A program made the translations under genes and the position numbers. The notes under the pieces were generated by a model, which was given only the letters and a program-made list of their open reading frames with translations, had not been told where the DNA came from and made no database searches. Below, piece after piece: positions 9,171 to 39,311 of a DNA stretch of 64,000 bases; positions within the stretch are counted from its first letter, which is position 1; each line of letters begins with the position of its first letter. Source of the stretch: Escherichia coli (GTDB taxonomy: Bacteria > Pseudomonadota > Gammaproteobacteria > Enterobacterales > Enterobacteriaceae); NCBI RefSeq assembly GCF_024223415.1, contig NZ_CP100500.1. The stretch is one strand, 5' to 3'.

Positions 9171-9340
<170 letters not shown>

Positions 9341-9460: not shown

Positions 9461-9547
9461 GCGAAGGTGGCGGAATTGGTAGACGCGCTAGCTTCAGGTG
9501 TTAGTGTCCTTACGGACGTGGGGGTTCAAGTCCCCCCCCTCGCACCA
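9461..9547 (+). tRNA. leuQ: tRNA-Leu(CAG), copy 1
   Basis: 87 nt GCGAAGGTGGCGGAATTGGTAGACGCG...; anticodon loop CTTCAGGTG; T-arm GGGGGTTCAAGTCCCCC; encoded CCA. Confidence 0.95.
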
Positions 9548-9575
9548 AAAACCACGTTGATATTGCTCGCACTGG

Positions 9576-9662
9576 GCGAAGGTGGCGGAATTGGTAGACG
9601 CGCTAGCTTCAGGTGTTAGTGTTCTTACGGACGTGGGGGTTCAAGTCCCCCCCCTCGCACCA
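9576..9662 (+). tRNA. leuP: tRNA-Leu(CAG), copy 2
   Basis: Same 87-nt sequence with one substitution (gttcttacgg instead of gtccttacgg in the variable arm). Confidence 0.95.
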
Positions 9663-9696
9663 AACGAGGCGATATCAAAAAAAGTAAGATGACTGT

Positions 9697-9782
9697 GCGA
9701 AGGTGGCGGAATTGGTAGACGCGCTAGCTTCAGGTGTTAGTGTCCTTACGGACGTGGGGGTTCAAGTCCCCCCCTCGCACCA
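9697..9782 (+). tRNA. leuV: tRNA-Leu(CAG), copy 3
   Basis: Same sequence, but the C-run before the 3' acceptor strand has 7 C instead of 8 (86 nt). Confidence 0.9.
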
Positions 9783-28678: not shown

Positions 28679-28981
28679 TTATTTTTTGTTCTGATCGCGC
28701 AGCATCGCTTCACGTAAAATTGCGTTCAGGCGAGTTTGATAGCCTTTACCAGGTCGCTTCAGCCATTCCATCACATCAGCATCAATACGCACCGAAGCCT
28801 GGGTTTTCAATGGCCGATAAAACTTACCGCGTTCTGCGTTAGACCATTGCTCATCGCTGGAAGGCGGGATATCACTGTAATCAATATCTTCGTCGAATTT
28901 ATTCGCCAGTGCCTTCAGTTCGGCCTCATGCTGCACATCGAGTGTAGAGGGTGTCCCTCGTTTATGTTTAACCATGCTCAT
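28679..28981 (-). CDS. brnA: BrnA-like antitoxin (DUF4415/COG3514)
   Basis: C-terminal VRIDADVMEWLKRPGKGYQTRLNAILREAM is the hallmark BrnA motif; start at internal ATG (MSMVKHKRG) overlapping the brnT 3' end by 14 nt. Confidence 0.7.
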   Translation of the reverse strand: MSMVKHKRGTPSTLDVQHEAELKALANKFDEDIDYSDIPPSSDEQWSNAERGKFYRPLKTQASVRIDADVMEWLKRPGKGYQTRLNAILREAMLRDQNKK

Positions 28982-29255
28982 AGCGACTCCTCTCTTTACG
29001 ATCTGCTTTTCGTGCACTGATGATTCGAATAATTTCATTTCCGCTTTCGAAACGGATGGTATGCGCAACCAGAATAACCACGATACCGTGAACCAGGCCG
29101 ATAGTCTGCCAGCGATACTCACCGTTTTCTATGCGATCTTGCTGTGACAAATGTTGTGGATCATCAAACACTAACACCGCATCTTCAAAGCGGATGCCAT
29201 GTTTCACCCGATTACTTTTGGCCTTGTTTGCATCCCATTCAAACTCCATTGGCAT
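28968..29255 (-). CDS. brnT: BrnT-like toxin (DUF497/COG2929, RelE-fold ribonuclease)
   Basis: N-terminus ...MEFEWDANKAKSNRVKHGIRFEDAVLVFDD is the typical BrnT signature; toxin gene lies upstream of the antitoxin as in brnTA operons; start ambiguous among three nearby ATG (29249/29255/29264). Confidence 0.7.
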   Translation of the reverse strand: MPMEFEWDANKAKSNRVKHGIRFEDAVLVFDDPQHLSQQDRIENGEYRWQTIGLVHGIVVILVAHTIRFESGNEIIRIISARKADRKERSRYEHG

Positions 29256-29451: not shown

Positions 29452-30618
29452 GTGAAAAACTATAAAGTTATTACCCCGCTTTTTCCTACCTATGCACAGG
29501 TTAAAGCTATGATGAAAGCCGTCTCAGGCTATTCCCTGAAAGCGGTACGCAATATGATTACCGCCATTCGCGATCAAACCGGTACGCCGCAAAAACCCGT
29601 TGACTGGTCGGAACCTGACCTGTGGATCAGCGAACGCTTAACGGGCGAAGATGCCGACATCGCCCGTCGTATTTGGGATACAGATAATCACATATTGAAC
29701 CCGCGCCACAGCTACGGCTGCTACTTATTCCTCAACTATCCCCAGTTTGAGCTGATGGAAAGCACGCCAGATGATACCTGGCAGCCCACCTCGCGCGGGC
29801 AAAAATTCCTGCAAGATGACGAAAAAACGCTGCGTTCACTGGATGACCAGGAAGGCATTCTGCAACTGCTTGAGCTGCTGGCTGGCCGGGAAATGTCGCG
29901 CCGCGCCGATTTATTGCCGGAATGGCAGGCCTTTTTGCATCAGCATTCGAAATTCGCGTCTGCAAGTTCAGTGAAAAGCACGCTCTACTCCCGTCTCTAT
30001 AACCTTATTGACCGTGGCATGGTTACTCGCGAAGGTATGAGCTATTGCATCACCGATACCGGACGCGCCTGGCTTGGAAAAGCGTTGCCAGCACGAAAAA
30101 GCGATCCGCGTAAAGAGCTGTTGGAAGCGGTGAAACGCTACAACGAGCAGCAAAAAGAGCTGCTGCGCGAACAAATCAGCACGATGAACCCGTACAAATT
30201 TGAACAACTGGTCGGTCAATTACTGGAAGCAATGGGCTACGAGCAGGTCGAAGTGACCAAAGCCTCAGGCGATAAAGGTGTGGACGTGATTGGTCAGGTG
30301 CAGGTCGGCATCACCACTATTACCGAAGTGGTGCAGGTCAAAAGAATGCAGAACACCATCACTCGACCGTATATCGACCAGTTGCGCGGAGCGTTGCCTT
30401 ACCACAAAGCCATTCGCGGTACGCTCATCACCACCGGGAAATTTGCGGCGAAATGTGCAGAAGCGGCGCTCTTTCCGGGGGCAGCGCCCATTACGCTTAT
30501 CGACGGCGATCGCTTACTGGAACTGTTAATCGAAAATAACGTCGGCATTCGCCGCAGCAATGCAGTGGAATTGCTGGATGTAGATTTGCAGTTGTTTGAT
30601 GAGCTGGAGATGGATTAA
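29452..30618 (+). CDS. Mrr-family (type IV-like) restriction endonuclease with extended N-terminal region
   Basis: C-terminal Mrr_cat-like core (GDKGVDVIG...TEVVQVKR, D...QxK variant); GTG start preceded by aaggga; ends 63 bp before hsdM on the same strand. Confidence 0.75.
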   Translation: MKNYKVITPLFPTYAQVKAMMKAVSGYSLKAVRNMITAIRDQTGTPQKPVDWSEPDLWISERLTGEDADIARRIWDTDNHILNPRHSYGCYLFLNYPQFELMESTPDDTWQPTSRGQKFLQDDEKTLRSLDDQEGILQLLELLAGREMSRRADLLPEWQAFLHQHSKFASASSVKSTLYSRLYNLIDRGMVTREGMSYCITDTGRAWLGKALPARKSDPRKELLEAVKRYNEQQKELLREQISTMNPYKFEQLVGQLLEAMGYEQVEVTKASGDKGVDVIGQVQVGITTITEVVQVKRMQNTITRPYIDQLRGALPYHKAIRGTLITTGKFAAKCAEAALFPGAAPITLIDGDRLLELLIENNVGIRRSNAVELLDVDLQLFDELEMD

Positions 30619-30681: not shown

Positions 30682-32301
30682 ATGGCCAAAGCACCAACTA
30701 AAAAAGCCAAAGCAAAGAAAGGCTTTGAAGAAACATTATGGGATACTGCAAACCAACTTCGCGGTAGCGTTGAGTCCTCCGAATACAAGCACGTGGTGTT
30801 AAGCCTCGTGTTCCTGAAATTCATCAGCGATAAGTTTGAAGCACGCCGCAAAAAAATGATTGCCGATGGGCAAGCTGACTTCCTTGAGATGGAAGTGTTC
30901 TACCAGCAGGACAACATTTTCTACCTGCCGGAAGAGGCGCGCTGGTCATTTATCAAACAAAATGCCAAACAGGACGATATTGCGGTTCGTATTGACACCG
31001 CCCTCTCGACCATTGAGAAACGTAACCCAACCCTGAAAGGCGCGCTGCCAGACAACTACTTCAGCCGTCAGAATCTGGAAACCAAAAAACTGGCGTCACT
31101 GATTGATACCATCGACAACGTCGAAACGCTGGCACACGAAACTGACGTTGAAACGTTGTCGAAAGAAGACCTGGTCGGACGCGTTTACGAATACTTCCTC
31201 GGTAAGTTTGCCGCAACCGAAGGCAAAGGCGGTGGTGAGTTCTACACGCCCAAATGTGTGGTTACGCTGTTAACTGAAATGCTCGAACCTTTCCAGGGCA
31301 AAATCTATGACCCATGCTGCGGCTCGGCGGGGATGTTCGTGCAGTCGGTGAAGTTTGTCGAGAGCCATCAGGGTAAAAGTCGTGATATCGCGCTGTATGG
31401 TCAGGAACTGACAGCCACGACGTATAAACTGGCAAAAATGAACCTCGCCATTCGCGGCCTTTCAGCAAACCTCGGCGAACGCCCGGCAGACACTTTCTTT
31501 AGCGACCAGCACCCGGACCTGAAAGCCGACTACATTCTGGCGAACCCGCCGTTCAACCTGAAAGACTGGCGTAATGAAGCCGAATTAACCAAAGATCCAC
31601 GTTTTGCTGGTTATCGTATGCCGCCAACCGGTAACGCCAACTACGGCTGGATTTTGCATATGCTCTCCAAGCTGTCGGCTAACGGCACAGCAGGTTTTGT
31701 GCTGGCAAACGGTTCGATGAGTTCTAACACCAGCGGTGAAGGCGAGATCCGTGCGCAGATGATCGAAAATGATCTGATCGACTGCATGATCGCCCTACCT
31801 GGTCAGTTGTTTTACACCACGCAGATCCCGGTGTGTTTATGGTTTATGACCAAATCGAAGGCTGCCGACCCGGCCAAAGGTTATCGTGATCGTCAGGGCG
31901 AGACGCTGTTTATTGATGCGCGTAACCTCGGCACCATGATTAGCCGCACAACTAAAGAGTTAACGGCGGAAGATATTGCCACCATCGCCGATACCTACCA
32001 TGCATGGCGCAGTACGCCGGAAGAACTGGCTGCACGGATTGCGCGTGGTGACAGCAAGCTGGAAAAATATGAAGACCAGGCAGGCTTCAGCAAAGTTGCG
32101 ACCCTGCAAGATATTAAAGATAACGACTACGTGCTGACGCCGGGCCGCTATGTGGGTGCAGCCGAGCAGGAAGAGGACGGCGTGGCATTTGAGACAAAAA
32201 TGCGGGAGTTGTCGAAGACGTTGTTTGAGCAGATGAAGCAGGCGGAAGAACTGGATTGTGCGATTCGCCAGAATCTGGAGGCGCTGGGTTATGGGGAGTA
32301 A
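30682..32301 (+). CDS. hsdM: Type I R-M N6-adenine DNA methyltransferase subunit
   Basis: 539-aa ORF with SAM-binding motif I (DPCCGSAGMF) and catalytic NPPF (ILANPPFNL); N-terminus unlike EcoKI HsdM. Confidence 0.9.
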   Translation: MAKAPTKKAKAKKGFEETLWDTANQLRGSVESSEYKHVVLSLVFLKFISDKFEARRKKMIADGQADFLEMEVFYQQDNIFYLPEEARWSFIKQNAKQDDIAVRIDTALSTIEKRNPTLKGALPDNYFSRQNLETKKLASLIDTIDNVETLAHETDVETLSKEDLVGRVYEYFLGKFAATEGKGGGEFYTPKCVVTLLTEMLEPFQGKIYDPCCGSAGMFVQSVKFVESHQGKSRDIALYGQELTATTYKLAKMNLAIRGLSANLGERPADTFFSDQHPDLKADYILANPPFNLKDWRNEAELTKDPRFAGYRMPPTGNANYGWILHMLSKLSANGTAGFVLANGSMSSNTSGEGEIRAQMIENDLIDCMIALPGQLFYTTQIPVCLWFMTKSKAADPAKGYRDRQGETLFIDARNLGTMISRTTKELTAEDIATIADTYHAWRSTPEELAARIARGDSKLEKYEDQAGFSKVATLQDIKDNDYVLTPGRYVGAAEQEEDGVAFETKMRELSKTLFEQMKQAEELDCAIRQNLEALGYGE

Positions 32302-33604
32302 TGCTATTACAACAATAATTGGTGAACACTTGCTGATTAGAAATGGCAAATCTTCGCCATCAAGAGCCATAACAGGAGAATATCCTGTTTATGGTTCAAA
32401 TGGAATAATAGGTTATTCAGATGAATATAACGCTAATGAAAATACAATAATTATCGGGCGTGTTGGGTCATATTGTGGTTCAGTTTATATTTCCGATAAA
32501 AAATGTTGGGTCACTGATAATGCAATAATTGGAACCGCAAAGAATGAAAATGAAAGTCATTTTTGGTTCTATCTTTTAAAAAAAATAGATTTGAACAATT
32601 ATAGTACTGGTTCAGGCCAACCTCTCATTAACCAAACAATAATTAATACAATATCCGTTACCATTCCTAAGCTCAGTGAGAAAAGAGTAGCCATTGGACA
32701 TTTTTTACGCCACTTTGATCAAAAGATAAATTTATCTCTTAATATCAATCAATCCTTGGAACAAATGTCCCAAACCTTGTTCAAATCCTGGTTTGTGGAT
32801 TTCGATCCGGTGATTGATAACGCGCTGGACGCGGGAAACCCAATCCCGGAAGCGATGCAATCTCGCGCAGAACTGCGTCAAAAAGTACGTAATAGTGCAG
32901 ATTTTAAACCGCTTCTAGCGGAAATCCGCTCGCTTTTCCCAAGTGAATTTGAAGAAACCGAACCAGGATGGTTACCTAAGGGCTGGAAACATGGTAATTT
33001 AAATGATGTCACGAAGATCTTAAGTGGGTTTGCTTTTAAGAGTAAAGACTTTGGTGATGAAGGTAAAAGTGTCATAAAAATAAAGAACATTAATATCGAT
33101 AAAACAATTGATATAGATCATACTCAAAAAATTTCTGATATCGTAGCCAAAGACGTAAAGCGTTTTCAATTATTTGATGCCGATATTTTGATGGCTATGA
33201 CTGGTGCCACGGTCGGTAAATTTGGAATATTAGCATCAAAAAATCATGAAGAATATTATCTTAACCAACGAGTTGCGAAGTTTGAAACAGATAAAAAAGC
33301 TTACCTTTATTGTATATTGAATCAAGAAAGTACCGAAAGATTTATAATCAATACAGCTCAGGGCAGTGCACAACCAAATATCAGTGCTAAAGATATTTTA
33401 AGTATTCCACTCACACTACCATCAAACGAAATAATAACTATATTCAATACATTTGTTGATCCTTTATTCTACAGAATGATAGCGAATACAAAAGTTAGTT
33501 TAAGTCTAACAGAACTCCGCGACACCTTGCTCCCAAAACTCATCTCCGGCGAGCTCTCCCTGGAAGATCTTCCGGATCTCAGCACCAATACAGAAGCCGC
33601 ATAA
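32291..33604 (+). CDS. hsdS: Type I R-M specificity subunit
   Basis: Two AT-rich variable target-recognition regions separated by a conserved central region (SLEQMSQTLFKSWFVDFDP) plus conserved C-terminal helix (LTELRDTLLPKLISGEL); ATG at 32291 overlaps the hsdM 3' end. Confidence 0.85.
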   Translation: MGSNAITTIIGEHLLIRNGKSSPSRAITGEYPVYGSNGIIGYSDEYNANENTIIIGRVGSYCGSVYISDKKCWVTDNAIIGTAKNENESHFWFYLLKKIDLNNYSTGSGQPLINQTIINTISVTIPKLSEKRVAIGHFLRHFDQKINLSLNINQSLEQMSQTLFKSWFVDFDPVIDNALDAGNPIPEAMQSRAELRQKVRNSADFKPLLAEIRSLFPSEFEETEPGWLPKGWKHGNLNDVTKILSGFAFKSKDFGDEGKSVIKIKNINIDKTIDIDHTQKISDIVAKDVKRFQLFDADILMAMTGATVGKFGILASKNHEEYYLNQRVAKFETDKKAYLYCILNQESTERFIINTAQGSAQPNISAKDILSIPLTLPSNEIITIFNTFVDPLFYRMIANTKVSLSLTELRDTLLPKLISGELSLEDLPDLSTNTEAA

Positions 33605-33698: not shown

Positions 33699-36600
33699 AT
33701 GAGTCTCTCTTTCAGTGAAGCAAAATTAGAACAAGCGATCATTGAACTGCTGCAGGATCAGGGATATCAACACCTGATCGGCGATAATGTCCCACGTTCA
33801 AGTCTCGATCAGGTCATCATCGAAGACGATCTCCGTCATTATTTAGCGGCACGCTACCAGCCTGATGGCATTACTGAAGAAGAGATTCAACGGCTGATCA
33901 AACAGTTCACCACGCTTCCGGCCTCCGACCTTTATGAAAGCAACAAAACATTTTGTCGCTGGCTGGCAAATGGTTTTCTGTTCAAACGCGACGATCGGCA
34001 ACAAAAAGATCTCTATATTGAATTGCTCGACACCCGGCATCTACCCGCCGCACTGCGCCAGATATTTGACACCGACGATGTCCCGTTGCAACAGGCGGCG
34101 GAACTCCCGCCTTCCTATATTAATCCGCCGCTTAACCGGATTAAGATTGTTAACCAGCTTAAAATCTCCGGTAAAGATAATCAGACTCGTATTCCTGACG
34201 GCATTCTCTATATCAACGGTCTGCCACTGGTCGTCTTTGAATTTAAAAGTGCGGTGCGCGAGCAAGAAGCCAGTATTGGCGATGCCTGGAAGCAGCTCTG
34301 TAAACGCTATCGCCGGGATATTCCGCAACTGTTTATCTACAACGCGCTCTGCGTTATCAGCGATGGCGTAAATAACCGGATGGGCAACCTGTTTGCGCCC
34401 TATGAATACTTTTACTCATGGCGCAAAGTCACCGGTAATGAAAACCGTGAACAGGACGGAATTCCATCATTGCACTCAATGATTCAGGGGCTGTTTCATC
34501 CGGTACGTCTGCTGGACGTGATTAAAAACTTTATCTGCTTCCCGGATAAAGCCAAGCACGAAGTAAAAATTTGCTGCCGATATCCGCAGTACTATGCCGC
34601 CCGCAAACTCTATTACAGCATCAAGCAAGCGCGTAAACCTTTCGGTAGCGGTAAAGGCGGCACCTACTTTGGCGCAACGGGCTGTGGCAAAAGTTACACC
34701 ATGCAATTTTTAACGCGTCTTTTGATGAAGAGCGTGGAGTTTGCCAGCCCGACCATTGTTTTGATCACCGACCGCACCGATCTGGACGATCAGCTTTCTG
34801 CGCAAATGTGCAACGCCAAAAATTACATTGGCGACGACACCATCGTTCCTGTTACCAGCCGTGAAGATTTGCGTAATCAACTGGCGGGACGCAATAGTGG
34901 CGGTGTATTCCTGACAACGATCCATAAATTCACCGAAGACACCGAACTCCTTTCTGAACGCAGCAATATCATTTGCATCTCGGACGAAGCACATCGCAGC
35001 CAGGTTAACCTCGACCAGAAAGTCATCGTCGATAAAGAAAGCGGAAAAGTGCGCAAAACTTATGGCTTTGCGAAATACCTGCACGATTCACTGCCAAACG
35101 CCACCTATGTTGGCTTTACCGGCACACCGATTGACGCGACGCTCGATGTCTTCGGTGAGGTGATCGACAGTTACACCATGACCGAATCCGTTCAGGATGA
35201 AATCACTGTACGCATCGTGTACGAAGGCCGTGCGGCTAAAGTGATCCTGGACTCCAGTAAACTGGAAGAAGTTGAAAAGTATTACGAAGAGTGCGCAAAC
35301 GCAGGCACCAATGAGTGGCAAATCGACGAAAGCAAAAAAGCCACCGCAACCATGAATGCGGTACTGGGTGATGAAGATCGGTTAAAAGCCCTCGCGGAAG
35401 ATTTTGCCAAACATTATGAAAAACGCGTAGACGAAGGTTCCACCGTAAAAGGCAAAGCCATGTTTGTTTGTGCCAGCCGTGAAATTGCCTGGGATTTCTA
35501 CCGTCAGCTTAAAGCTATTCGCCCTGCCTGGTTTGAAGTGAAGCAAGCACCCGATGGCGTCGTCCTGACGGAACAGGAGCAGAAAGAGTTACCGCCTTCA
35601 GAAATGGTGAAGATGGTCATGACGCGCGGTAAAGATGACGACGAGGCGCTTTATGATTTACTGGGCACAAAAGAATATCGTAAAGAGCTGGATAAACAGT
35701 TTAAAAACGCTAAATCGAATTTCAAAATTGCCATTGTTGTTGATATGTGGCTGACCGGTTTCGACGTCCCGGAACTGGATACCATCTATATTGATAAACC
35801 CTTACAAAAACATAATCTTATCCAGACCATTTCTCGCGTTAACCGTAAACTGGAAGGCAAAAGTAAAGGGTTAGTGGTGGACTACATCGGCATTAAAAGT
35901 CAGATGAACCAGGCACTGGCAATGTATTCCCGCATTGATGCCACCAACTTTGAAGATATTCAGCAATCGGTAATAGAAGTTAAAAACCATCTCGATTTGT
36001 TGGGGCAAGTCTTTTACGAATTTGACAGTCGGGATTATTTTAGTGGTGAGCCACAAGCGCAATTATCCTGCCTCAACCGCGCGGCGGAATTTGTTCTGCG
36101 TACCCAGAAAGTTGAACGTCGTTTTATGGGACTGGTTAAACGCATGAAAGCCGCCTACGACGTCTGCTGCGGCAGCGAAGCATTATCACAGACAGAACGT
36201 GACTATATTCACTATTATCTTGCTGTTCGTTCAATTGTTTTCAAACTGACGAAAGGTGACGCACCGGATGTCACCCAGATGAATGCACGCGTTCGTGAAA
36301 TGATTGCAGAAGCGTTAAAAGCTGATGGCGTAGAAGAGATTTATTTTCTTGGCGATAAAAAAGCGGAATCCATCGATATTTTTGACGAAGATTATCTGGC
36401 ACGAATTAACAAGATCAAACTTCCGGCAACGAAGATCCAGTTATTACAAAAATTACTGGAAAAAGCGATCAGCGACTTCAAGAAAGTGAACCAGTTGCAA
36501 GGGATTAACTTCACCCGCCGCTTCCAGGCAATTATAGATCGTTATAATGAGCGGCGAGAAGATGATGTACTCAACGGTGAAGAATTCGATACATTCAGTC

Positions 36601-36962
36601 AGGAAATGACCGATATTATCTATGATATTAAAACCGAAATGGGCACCTGGGCCGATTTAGGCATTGATATTGAAGAAAAAGCGTTTTTCGACATTCTTGC
36701 TCATATGCGCGATAAATATCAGTTCACCTATGACGATGAAAAAATGCTGTCACTGGCAAAAGAGATGAAAAGCGTGGTTGACAACACATCGAAATATCCT
36801 GACTGGAGTAAACGTGATGATATTAAAGCGAAACTGAAAGTTGAACTTATTCTGCTTCTACACAAGCATAAGTTCCCGCCAGTAGCGAATGATGATGTTT
36901 ATATGGGTGTGCTGGCACAGGCAGAGAATTTTAAAGAACACCATATGAGTGCTTTAAATTAA
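33699..36962 (+). CDS. hsdR: Type I R-M restriction subunit (nuclease/helicase)
   Basis: N-terminal PD-(D/E)xK (…LPLVVFEFKS), Walker A (GATGCGKS), DEAH box (ISDEAHRSQ); ATG 33699 preceded by ggag. Confidence 0.9.
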   Translation: MSLSFSEAKLEQAIIELLQDQGYQHLIGDNVPRSSLDQVIIEDDLRHYLAARYQPDGITEEEIQRLIKQFTTLPASDLYESNKTFCRWLANGFLFKRDDRQQKDLYIELLDTRHLPAALRQIFDTDDVPLQQAAELPPSYINPPLNRIKIVNQLKISGKDNQTRIPDGILYINGLPLVVFEFKSAVREQEASIGDAWKQLCKRYRRDIPQLFIYNALCVISDGVNNRMGNLFAPYEYFYSWRKVTGNENREQDGIPSLHSMIQGLFHPVRLLDVIKNFICFPDKAKHEVKICCRYPQYYAARKLYYSIKQARKPFGSGKGGTYFGATGCGKSYTMQFLTRLLMKSVEFASPTIVLITDRTDLDDQLSAQMCNAKNYIGDDTIVPVTSREDLRNQLAGRNSGGVFLTTIHKFTEDTELLSERSNIICISDEAHRSQVNLDQKVIVDKESGKVRKTYGFAKYLHDSLPNATYVGFTGTPIDATLDVFGEVIDSYTMTESVQDEITVRIVYEGRAAKVILDSSKLEEVEKYYEECANAGTNEWQIDESKKATATMNAVLGDEDRLKALAEDFAKHYEKRVDEGSTVKGKAMFVCASREIAWDFYRQLKAIRPAWFEVKQAPDGVVLTEQEQKELPPSEMVKMVMTRGKDDDEALYDLLGTKEYRKELDKQFKNAKSNFKIAIVVDMWLTGFDVPELDTIYIDKPLQKHNLIQTISRVNRKLEGKSKGLVVDYIGIKSQMNQALAMYSRIDATNFEDIQQSVIEVKNHLDLLGQVFYEFDSRDYFSGEPQAQLSCLNRAAEFVLRTQKVERRFMGLVKRMKAAYDVCCGSEALSQTERDYIHYYLAVRSIVFKLTKGDAPDVTQMNARVREMIAEALKADGVEEIYFLGDKKAESIDIFDEDYLARINKIKLPATKIQLLQKLLEKAISDFKKVNQLQGINFTRRFQAIIDRYNERREDDVLNGEEFDTFSQEMTDIIYDIKTEMGTWADLGIDIEEKAFFDILAHMRDKYQFTYDDEKMLSLAKEMKSVVDNTSKYPDWSKRDDIKAKLKVELILLLHKHKFPPVANDDVYMGVLAQAENFKEHHMSALN

Positions 36963-36969
36963 TTATGAA

Positions 36970-37000
36970 GGCCGGATACACTTTGTTATCCGGCCATTCT
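36970..37000 (+). terminator. Hairpin after hsdR
   Basis: ggccggata-cactttgt-tatccggcc followed by attct; weak T-tract. Confidence 0.45.
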
Positions 37001-37082
37001 GAATTAACGTTAATTTCTCTTCCAGATCTTTCCAGTAACGCTTTTATTATTTTCTATTTTTAGCTGGACTATCCCTGTATTT

Positions 37083-37098
37083 ACTGATGATATATCCA
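37083..37098. promoter_or_regulatory. LexA (SOS) box upstream of symE
   Basis: CTGATGATATATCCAG fits CTG-N10-CAG with an AT-rich centre, about 80 bp upstream of the symE ATG. Confidence 0.6.
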
Positions 37099-37104
37099 GG
37101 TATT

Positions 37105-37183
37105 TAGCGCGGTGCGGATGTGCGCCAACACACCCGCACCGCTCATCACAATCACTATTTTCAAGGAATAGCAGTTATGACTG
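37105..37183 (-). ncRNA. symR: SymR antisense sRNA (approximate coordinates)
   Basis: Placed by analogy with the K-12 symE/SymR type I TA arrangement, where a ~77-nt antisense RNA overlaps the symE RBS and start codon; boundaries not determined from sequence. Confidence 0.35.
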
Positions 37184-37515
37184 ACACGCATTCTATTGCA
37201 CAACCGTTCGAAGCAGAAGTCTCCCCGGCAAATAACCGCCAATTAACCGTGAGTTATGCGAGTCGCTACCCGGATTACAGCCGTATTCCCGCCATCACTC
37301 TGAAAGGTCAGTGGCTGGAAGCCGCCGGTTTTGCTACCGGCACGGCGGTAGATGTCAAAGTGATGGACGGCTGTATTGTCCTCACCGCCCAACCACCCGC
37401 CGCCGAAGAGAGCGAACTGATGCAGTCGCTACGCCAGGTGTGCAAACTGTCGGCACGTAAACAAAAGCAGGTGCAGGAGTTTATTGGGGTGATTAGTAGC
37501 AAAACGCCACGCTAA
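37177..37515 (+). CDS. symE: SOS-induced toxin SymE (AbrB-fold)
   Basis: [55 protein letters not shown]...; start at internal ATG 37177 with RBS aagga. Confidence 0.85.
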
Positions 37516-37557
37516 GTTTCTCTCCCCTTCCCCATACGTGAAGGGGAATTGCCCCCA

Positions 37558-37722
37558 TCACTCCACATCCTCCTTGCGTAACCCAATATCCCTCAACCGT
37601 TCATCACTCATTTGCTGTAACACTCGTCGGGTCTGCATTTGTCGCCGCCAACGCCTCACCGCCTGCCAGAGTTGCACAAGTCTGATAAACGGCGTTTTGG
37701 CTTTGTTTTCGTGAAATTCCAT
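37558..37722 (-). CDS. yjiS: DUF1127 small protein YjiS (54 aa)
   Basis: Hand translation of the minus strand: MEFHENKAKTPFIRLVQLWQAVRRWRRQMQTRRVLQQMSDERLRDIGLRKEDVE with RBS gaggagg; below the 60-aa cutoff so absent from the ORF track. Confidence 0.8.
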   Translation of the reverse strand: MEFHENKAKTPFIRLVQLWQAVRRWRRQMQTRRVLQQMSDERLRDIGLRKEDVE

Positions 37723-37898
37723 CTGCTGCCTCCTCATCTTTCAGAGGCTTCATCATCCGCCTTCTGGCAGTTCACAATACAGATGCAAATATTAGTTTTA
37801 TTTAACATACAGACAGGTTAAAACAGCATCTGCATCCGGTTTTTTAGCCTCATCTGTACCGGTTTTTCTCTCTGTATGGTCTAAATAAGGAATACAGC

Positions 37899-39311
37899 AT
37901 GACGCGTTATCAACATCTGGCAACTCTGCTTGCCGAGCGGATTGAGCAAGGGCTGTATCGTCACGGGGAGAAATTGCCGTCGGTGCGCAGCTTAAGTCAG
38001 GAGCACGGCGTCAGCATCAGCACCGTGCAGCAGGCGTATCAGACGCTGGAGACGATGAAGCTCATCACTCCGCAGCCGCGTTCGGGGTATTTTGTCGCAC
38101 AACGTAAAGCCCAGCCGCCAGTGCCGCCGATGACGCGTCCGGTGCAGCGCCCGGTGGAAATTACCCAGTGGGATCAGGTACTGGATATGCTGGAGGCGCA
38201 TAGCGACAGTTCCATTGTTCCGTTAAGCAAAAGCACGCCGGATGTCGAAACGCCCAGCCTGAAACCACTCTGGCGGGAGCTAAGCCGGGTGGTACAGCAT
38301 AATCTGCAAACCGTTCTCGGTTATGACTTGCTAGCCGGTCAGCGGGTATTGCGCGAGCAGGTTGCCCGCCTGATGCTCGACAGCGGCTCGGTGGTCACCG
38401 CCGATGACATCATTATCACCAGCGGCTGCCATAACTCGATGTCGCTGGCGTTAATGGCGGTGTGTAAACCGGGCGATATTGTCGCGGTCGAATCCCCCTG
38501 TTATTACGGTTCGATGCAGATGCTGCGCGGCATGGGTGTGAAAGTGATTGAAATCCCAACCGATCCAGAAACTGGCATCAGCGTTGAAGCGCTGGAACTG
38601 GCGCTGGAACAGTGGCCGATTAAAGGCATCATTCTGGTGCCAAACTGTAATAATCCGCTGGGATTTATTATGCCGGACGCGCGCAAACGGGCCGTTCTCT
38701 CTCTCGCTCAGCGTCATGATATTGTGATTTTTGAAGATGATGTCTACGGCGAACTGGCAACGGAGTATCCGCGCCCGCGGACCATTCATTCCTGGGATAT
38801 CGACGGGCGAGTGCTGTTGTGCAGCTCGTTCAGTAAAAGTATTGCTCCAGGCCTGCGGGTGGGTTGGGTCGCACCGGGGCGCTATCACGATAAACTGCTG
38901 CATATGAAATACGCCATCAGCAGCTTTAATGTACCGTCCACGCAAATGGCGGCGGCAACGTTTGTGCTGGAAGGTCACTATCATCGCCATATCCGGCGGA
39001 TGCGGCAGATCTATCAGCGCAATTTGGCGCTTTATACCTGCTGGATACGGGAATATTTTCCCTGCGAAATCTGTATTACGCGCCCGAAAGGCGGATTTTT
39101 ACTGTGGATCGAATTGCCTGAACAGGTCGATATGGTCTGCGTCGCGCGGCAGCTATACCGCATGAAAATCCAGGTGGCGGCAGGCTCGATTTTCTCGGCT
39201 TCCGGCAAATACCGTAATTGTCTACGTATCAACTGCGCTTTGCCGCTCAACGAAACCTATCGCGAAGCACTGAAGCAAATTGGCGAGGCCGTGTATCGGG
39301 CAATGGAATAA
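37899..39311 (+). CDS. yjiR: MocR-family regulator (GntR HTH fused to aminotransferase-like domain)
   Basis: 470-aa ORF with N-terminal GntR wHTH (LPSVRSLSQEHGVSISTVQQAY) and PLP-fold domain (SFSKSIAPGLRVG). Confidence 0.85.
   Translation: MTRYQHLATLLAERIEQGLYRHGEKLPSVRSLSQEHGVSISTVQQAYQTLETMKLITPQPRSGYFVAQRKAQPPVPPMTRPVQRPVEITQWDQVLDMLEAHSDSSIVPLSKSTPDVETPSLKPLWRELSRVVQHNLQTVLGYDLLAGQRVLREQVARLMLDSGSVVTADDIIITSGCHNSMSLALMAVCKPGDIVAVESPCYYGSMQMLRGMGVKVIEIPTDPETGISVEALELALEQWPIKGIILVPNCNNPLGFIMPDARKRAVLSLAQRHDIVIFEDDVYGELATEYPRPRTIHSWDIDGRVLLCSSFSKSIAPGLRVGWVAPGRYHDKLLHMKYAISSFNVPSTQMAAATFVLEGHYHRHIRRMRQIYQRNLALYTCWIREYFPCEICITRPKGGFLLWIELPEQVDMVCVARQLYRMKIQVAAGSIFSASGKYRNCLRINCALPLNETYREALKQIGEAVYRAME

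Follow-up and report, generated by a model that had tools for sequence, protein, structure and literature searches.

symE lies downstream of hsdR in the K-12 orientation at an Escherichia coli ICR

Introduction

Has the symE gene been turned around in part of the species Escherichia coli? In a stretch of 64,000 nucleotides from the E. coli contig NZ_CP100500.1 (hereafter the window), symE directly follows hsdR, the last gene of a type I restriction-modification operon, and its other end abuts yjiS. A sequence-only reading of the locus took K-12 symE to be convergent with hsdS and held that the gene of the window is flipped with respect to the core genes on either side. It also reported a LexA box upstream of symE and placed the antisense RNA SymR across from this gene's 5′-end by analogy. 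The question raised by the locus is whether this arrangement is a rearrangement at all, and what controls symE within it.

In K-12, symE and symR form an SOS-induced pair resembling a type I toxin-antitoxin system. LexA represses symE transcription, the Lon protease degrades the SymE protein, and SymR lowers both the translation and the level of the symE mRNA, the three effects being additive (Kawano, Aravind and Storz, 2007; PMC1891008). The mRNA is virtually undetectable unless DNA is damaged, and SymR is a stable RNA approximately tenfold more abundant than it, transcribed from a promoter that is embedded in the symE ORF (PMC1891008). SymE was initially put forward, in 2007, as an endoribonuclease-like toxin (PMC1891008). 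Later work (Thompson et al., 2022, as cited in PMC11894785) is reported to have detected no RNase activity in the protein and to have shown that it binds DNA non-specifically and compacts the nucleoid. The RefSeq label for K-12 SymE is now nucleoid-associated protein.

Sibley and Raleigh are said to have portrayed the enterobacterial immigration control region (ICR) in 2004 as a locus of replaceable cassettes. A 2025 review likewise places these cassettes between yjiA and yjiS/yjiN, and names brnAT, symE-symR and rpn as the toxin-antitoxin systems that accompany the restriction systems of Types IA, IB and ID, the only types found at the ICR in 9,040 enterobacterial genomes (PMC12707154).

Results

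The K-12 map settles the matter of orientation. In RefSeq NC_000913.3, symE of strain MG1655 (4579499–4579840) lies on the minus strand, as do hsdS, hsdM, hsdR, mcrB, mcrC, yjiA and btsT; symR and yjiS lie on the plus strand. The order is yjiA(−) mrr(+) hsdR(−) hsdM(−) hsdS(−) symE(−) mcrB(−) mcrC(−) … yjiS(+), so that symE and hsdS share one strand and are not convergent. Read from the other strand, the K-12 locus becomes yjiA(+) … hsd(+) symE(+) … yjiS(−), which is the layout of the window, where the ORF list and the annotation of the near-identical strain SCU-316 give yjiA(+), hsdM-S-R(+), symE(+), yjiS(−) and yjiR(+). The alignment to K-12 that had been proposed as a check was run, and the K-12 locus, once reverse-complemented, matches the window from ~37046 to ~37495, with symE in the same orientation to yjiS. 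The same relative orientation was kept in all eight further E. coli and Salmonella loci examined, and the layout recurs in the IB loci, in a second IA locus, in a second locus with M-S-R gene order and in a locus with an hsdR remnant.

A local inversion of symE, with or without symR, relative to the flanking core genes had been argued from a supposed symE-hsdS convergence in K-12, with no computed result behind it. Against it stand the K-12 map, of which the window is the mirror image, the alignment and the eight further loci, and we regard its chance as practically nil. The claimed inversion stems from a mistaken K-12 map. In K-12, too, symE runs in the same direction as the hsd operon, so no rearrangement calls for an explanation.

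The remainder of what had been read from the sequence agrees with the map of the window. The symE coding sequence (37177–37515, +) lies on the same strand as hsdR, beginning 214 bp after its stop codon at 36962, and ends 42 bp from the stop codon of yjiS (37558–37722, −), the right-hand framework gene of the ICR and a DUF1127 gene with annotations in SCU-316 and numerous other genomes. Its ATG at 37177 sits in frame within a longer listed ORF (37120–37515). The predicted protein of 112 aa belongs to the SymE family of SOS-induced proteins with an AbrB/MazE fold, for which ~113 aa are expected, and residues 1–110 match the NCBIfam equivalog NF010128 (“endoribonuclease SymE”) with 222.7 bits (cut-off 132). 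SCU-316 matches the window collinearly over its full length, with 99.7–99.98% identity, and its ortholog carries the symE annotation.

Compared with the K-12 symE (yjiW, b4347) and symR (ryjC, b4625) genes, the locus of the window diverges by ~5% in nucleotide sequence, while the sequence at the start codon and in the symR promoter region is identical. The SymE proteins are also highly similar, the main difference being in the last 6–7 residues. K-12 SymE (113 aa) ends in AGKQKVA, whereas that of the window (112 aa) ends in SSKTPR. The SSKTPR tail is found where symE abuts yjiS, namely in the window and in strain uk_P46212, and the AGKQKVA tail in loci with a cassette 3′ of symE. Since these final 6–7 codons vary with the arrangement, an exchange or deletion breakpoint lies inside the symE ORF, and this right-hand breakpoint accounts for the altered C-terminal tail.

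The LexA (SOS) box that had been noted about 80 bp upstream of symE is the 16-mer CTGATGATATATCCAG (37084–37099), which ends 77 bp before the ATG and is enclosed by the 20-mer TACTGATGATATATCCAGGT (37082–37101). In the 64-kb window, it is the sole CTG-N10-CAG site that departs from the 20-mer LexA consensus at no more than six positions; first-order Markov simulations give a chance expectation of 0.085 such sites per window. The site itself has six mismatches and an AT-rich spacer. It agrees at 15 of 16 positions with the symE box of K-12 (which ends in ..ATACAG), a box for which Kawano et al. (PMC1891008) cite LexA binding and SOS induction from Fernandez de Henestrosa et al. (2000). The one difference falls in the right half-site, which reads CCAG in the window and ACAG in K-12 (C for A). 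The CCAG form was present in six of the seven aligned E. coli loci, and the K-12 box is thus the minority allele. Several validated E. coli SOS boxes also end in CCAG, for example those of uvrB, ruvA and dinI. Both the CTG and the CAG triplet are invariant, as is the distance between them, and the position of the box is held across genera: in Salmonella diarizonae, Kluyvera ascorbata and Pseudocitrobacter, a CTG-N10-CAG box starts 94–98 nt from the ATG. Taken by themselves, the counts argue modestly that the box exceeds chance; homology and conservation argue for it more strongly.

The shorter pattern TACTG-N10-CAG occurs five times in the window, compared with approximately one occurrence expected from shuffles. 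The four further sites (22303, 34574, 41513 and 59475) have GC-rich spacers and more than six mismatches to the consensus, and are probably chance matches.

The box is set within a promoter block that is conserved in the alignment, TTTTTAGCTGGACT … LexA box … GGTATTTAG (37056–37105, +). The homology common to all ICR types begins at ~37056, and the sequence further upstream is specific to the hsd cassette; in agreement with this, megablast matches limited to symE begin at 37046–37052. A CTGGACT block upstream of the box is invariant in the aligned loci and is likely the −35-like element, with the AT-rich core inside the box as the likely −10. With the −10 in this position, a bound LexA would sit directly on it. 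A scan for sigma-70 consensus promoters between 36850 and 37950 called none for symE or symR, and both promoters are therefore placed solely by their homology to K-12. A terminator scan of the same region returned only one terminator-like site, inside symE, which was at chance level.

SymR had been placed antisense to the symE 5′-end by analogy, and a covariance model now puts it there. The best Rfam match across the whole window is RF01809 at 37182–37106 on the minus strand (77 nt), with 91.7 bits (gathering score 61; E = 7e-18) over model positions 1–77. The predicted RNA spans the symE 5′ UTR and Shine-Dalgarno sequence and reaches across the start codon to 3 nt beyond it, so that its 5′-end falls on nucleotide six of the symE ORF; its 3′-end stops 7 nt short of the LexA box. 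Relative to the ATG, this geometry equals that of the K-12 pair. The RNA is predicted to fold into two hairpins with −39.3 kcal/mol, as compared with a mean of −21.6 for shuffled sequences (z = −6.1). When 13 SymR sequences were aligned (from E. coli, Salmonella, Kluyvera, Pseudocitrobacter and one further enterobacterium), compensatory changes were seen at five pairs of the second hairpin. Inside the symE coding sequence, the hexamer TAGAAT (37195–37190, −), 7 nt upstream of where SymR begins, is the probable symR −10; its region is invariant in seven loci and falls in a segment (37165–37238) that is identical to K-12. By this sequence match, the symR promoter would lie within the symE coding sequence, as it does in K-12.

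The apical loop of the first SymR hairpin, which corresponds to the Shine-Dalgarno region of symE, differs between the window and K-12 in six bases. This loop (37158–37163) is the most variable stretch of the conserved module, taking the forms TTCAAG, TATAGG, ATCGGA and CCTGGA in different strains, and a purine-rich GGA or GGAG always precedes the start codon. A second variation was observed at the apex of the SymR terminator hairpin in uk_P46212 (locus L008, 9207–9283), which is flipped relative to 37118–37140 of the window. The plus strand of the apex reads GTGTTGGCGCAC in uk_P46212 and GTGCGCCAACAC in the window and all other loci, meaning that an 8-nt segment has been swapped for its own reverse complement and the stem has stayed intact. 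This looks like a hairpin-apex inversion generated by template switching at a quasi-palindrome.

Elsewhere in the window, Rfam models detected four tandem naRNA4 (REP/BIME-type) matches with a spacing of ~101 bp (1188–1569), and one more at 9239–9321, near three tRNA-Leu genes (9461–9779). SnoRNA-like matches at ~37720–37761 and 38573–38642 scored under their gathering scores, are implausible in a bacterium and were rejected.

The type I operon upstream of symE consists of hsdM (30682–32301, +), hsdS (32291–33604, +) and hsdR (33699–36962, +), of which hsdM and hsdR were recognized by NCBIfam matches. Its HsdM shares 24.5% identity with HsdM of EcoKI (IA) and 26.5% with that of the EcoAI family (IB), and its HsdR has a weak local match of 24.7% to IA, with none to IB, which puts both subunits outside these two families. 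Given that Types IA, IB and ID are the only ones recorded at the ICR in the review cited above, the system would be Type ID by elimination. We thus consider it probably a member of this third family, by elimination rather than by comparison with a prototype. It resembles the Type ID systems StySBLI, EcoR9I and KpnAI in being a type I system that is encoded on the chromosome, within the ICR, and is neither IA nor IB. In K-12, the gene preceding symE is hsdS of EcoKI, whereas in the window it is the hsdR of another family; hsdR adjoins symE here because this type I family has the gene order M-S-R. The HsdM and HsdR proteins of the window and of uk_P46212 are 99% identical, and their HsdS proteins share 39% identity, which suggests that the two systems should recognize different target sequences. 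Members of one family that differ in specificity usually show such a combination of conserved HsdM and HsdR with divergent HsdS.

Just after the hsdR stop codon lies a GC-rich hairpin, GGCCGGATA-N8-TATCCGGCC (36970–36995, +), with −21.1 kcal/mol (z = −5.5) and no U-tract, which the terminator scan of 36850–37950 did not call. K-12, in contrast, has a canonical hairpin with a U-tract after hsdS. The hairpin of the window ends in TTATCCGGCC, which may resemble a REP element.

The ICR (defence hotspot 36) framework genes yjiA, yjiS, yjiR, rpn, mdtM and yjiN are kept in the standard order in the window, where the complete series is yjiA, brnTA, a gene for an Mrr-cat endonuclease, hsdMSR, symE, yjiS, yjiR, rpn, mdtM and yjiN. 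According to the SCU-316 annotation (offset 21899), brnA and brnT occupy 28679–28981 (−) and 28968–29255 (−), and the 388-aa Mrr-cat restriction endonuclease is encoded at 29452–30618 (+). The latter has a Pfam Mrr_cat domain (E = 3.8e-29) and shares 31% identity with K-12 Mrr over 173 aa. K-12 carries mrr in place of this left-hand combination. The components listed in the review for the ICR (type I, Mrr-like type IV, brnTA and symE-symR) are those of the window, and nothing essential differs.

The arrangement on the right-hand side of symE is more variable. The slot between symE and yjiS is empty in the window and holds mcrBC, yjiV and yjiT in K-12. GmrSD-type genes occupy it in O157:H7, 02E060 and XH990, and a large helicase gene in OSUCMP42NDM. 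The proximity of symE to yjiS in the window can therefore be ascribed to the absence of a second, type IV cassette (mcrBC or GmrSD). Wherever hsd genes were present in the IA, IB and M-S-R loci examined, symE lay just 3′ of the last of them in the same direction, at a spacing of ~215–230 bp in all three type I families. In XH990, symE has been kept and only a 210-bp hsdR remnant lies upstream. In Salmonella diarizonae, which has the order yjiA(+) … symE(+) … yjiS(−) as in the window, a gene for an AraC-type regulator and one for a LysE-type exporter are found between yjiA and symE, and there are no hsd genes. symE is missing from some genomes, among them that of strain CFSAN064036, which has an IS1 between yjiA and yjiS. 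The sequence common to all arrangements extends from ~37056, ~30 bp upstream of the LexA box, to ~37495, ~20 nt before the symE stop codon. Homology to other symE arrangements stops at ~37495, and matches restricted to yjiS begin at 37546–37558; the junction at which symE abuts yjiS (37496–37557) thus comprises the last seven symE codons and the 42 bp that follow. A hairpin within this junction (37523–37547) has −13.4 kcal/mol on the plus strand and −16.5 on the minus strand (z ~ −2.1).

In XH990 (locus L003, 9774–12063), the remnant derives from the 3′-end of an hsdR of the M-S-R family, and a gene annotated as “3′-5′ exonuclease” replaces the type I system. Judged by its sequence, this ICR is a decayed or replaced cassette that has retained symE.

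The symE module was found in 2872 of 5426 complete E. coli genomes. The junction of a window-type hsdR with the symE promoter occurs in 866 of these 5426 genomes, and the hsdR-symE-yjiS stretch in 916, which places the ICR variant of the window in ~16–17% of complete E. coli genomes, or about one in six. Two contigs of metagenome-assembled genomes labelled “Bacillota bacterium” also contain E. coli-like ICR segments, with proteins 92–99.6% identical to those of E. coli. One of them (L016) encodes a IA HsdM and SymE, and the other (L018) encodes a IB HsdR and HsdM together with GmrSD, YjiS and SymE. These segments are most likely binning contamination and not Firmicutes DNA.

Discussion

The window very probably contains the canonical, unrearranged symE/SymR locus of the E. 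coli ICR, and we estimate the probability of this reading at roughly 0.93. The locus is an ordinary ICR variant that has already been described, and the SOS-regulated pair of an antisense RNA and a toxin is likewise known: the position of the box, the antisense offset and the gene orientation are the same as in the K-12 pair (PMC1891008). By analogy with K-12, symE would be transcribed from its own promoter, on which LexA bound to 37084–37099 would act as a repressor, and SOS induction would relieve this repression. The stable 77-nt SymR, expressed from the promoter on the opposite strand inside the symE ORF, would be the constitutive partner; it would pair perfectly with the 5′ UTR, Shine-Dalgarno sequence and start codon of symE, thereby limiting both translation and the level of the mRNA. 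SymE protein that is nevertheless made would be degraded by Lon. For the strain of the window, we infer LexA binding, SOS induction, the expression and action of SymR and the control by Lon from these K-12 precedents.

Two other accounts of symE control deserve to be weighed against this one. The first would make symE a part of the type I transcription unit, reached by read-through from hsdR (or from hsdS in IA and IB loci) and thereby coupled to restriction instead of to SOS alone. The co-directional placement of symE at a near-constant distance from the last hsd gene in three type I families fits such an account, as does the post-hsdR hairpin, whose missing U-tract would make some read-through from hsdR to symE possible. 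The same hairpin is very stable, however, and K-12 has a canonical intrinsic terminator at the equivalent place after hsdS. Moreover, the upstream edge of the conserved symE module lies just ~30 bp from the LexA box, with cassette-specific sequence beyond it, the box and SymR persist where the hsd genes are deleted (XH990) or absent (S. diarizonae), and K-12 symE mRNA is hardly present before DNA damage. Read-through from hsdR is not required to explain anything observed, and we consider a coupling of this kind unlikely. It is similarly doubtful, and if anything a shade more so, that the box of the window is a weakened or non-functional remnant which leaves symE mainly to SymR and Lon. Such a reading could appeal to the six consensus mismatches and to the A-to-C substitution in the ACAG half-site of the experimentally studied K-12 box, a change that could alter the affinity for LexA. 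It is difficult to reconcile with the predominance of CCAG among the aligned E. coli loci, in which K-12 is the minority, and with the invariant triplets and spacing at a position kept across genera.

A third proposal concerns the role of the pair rather than its control. The constant position and orientation of symE beside three unrelated type I families in several genera could suggest that symE/SymR is a functional accessory of type I restriction-modification that shields the chromosome from self-restriction or coordinates it with restriction. If this were true, an SOS-induced, nucleoid-compacting SymE would act at the time when damage and repair yield unmodified sites, as a form of restriction alleviation. 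The data fit equally well with symE as a framework gene that provides a homology anchor between two independently exchanged cassettes, and symE persists where hsd has been deleted or was absent; we therefore view an accessory role as improbable.

The canonical symE/SymR reading is of small importance in itself, and its useful outcome is the corrected orientation of symE in K-12. A modest by-product concerns the structure of the ICR, in which symE appears as a fixed pivot that splits the region into two independently replaceable cassettes, the exchange breakpoints falling ~30 bp in front of the LexA box and within the last seven symE codons. Different type I/type IV cassettes can occupy the segment from yjiA to symE, their type I genes always pointing towards symE, and the segment from symE to yjiS holds mcrBC, GmrSD, a helicase gene or nothing. 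In these terms, the window combines a cassette of brnTA, an Mrr-like gene and hsdM-S-R (probably Type ID) on the left with an empty slot on the right.
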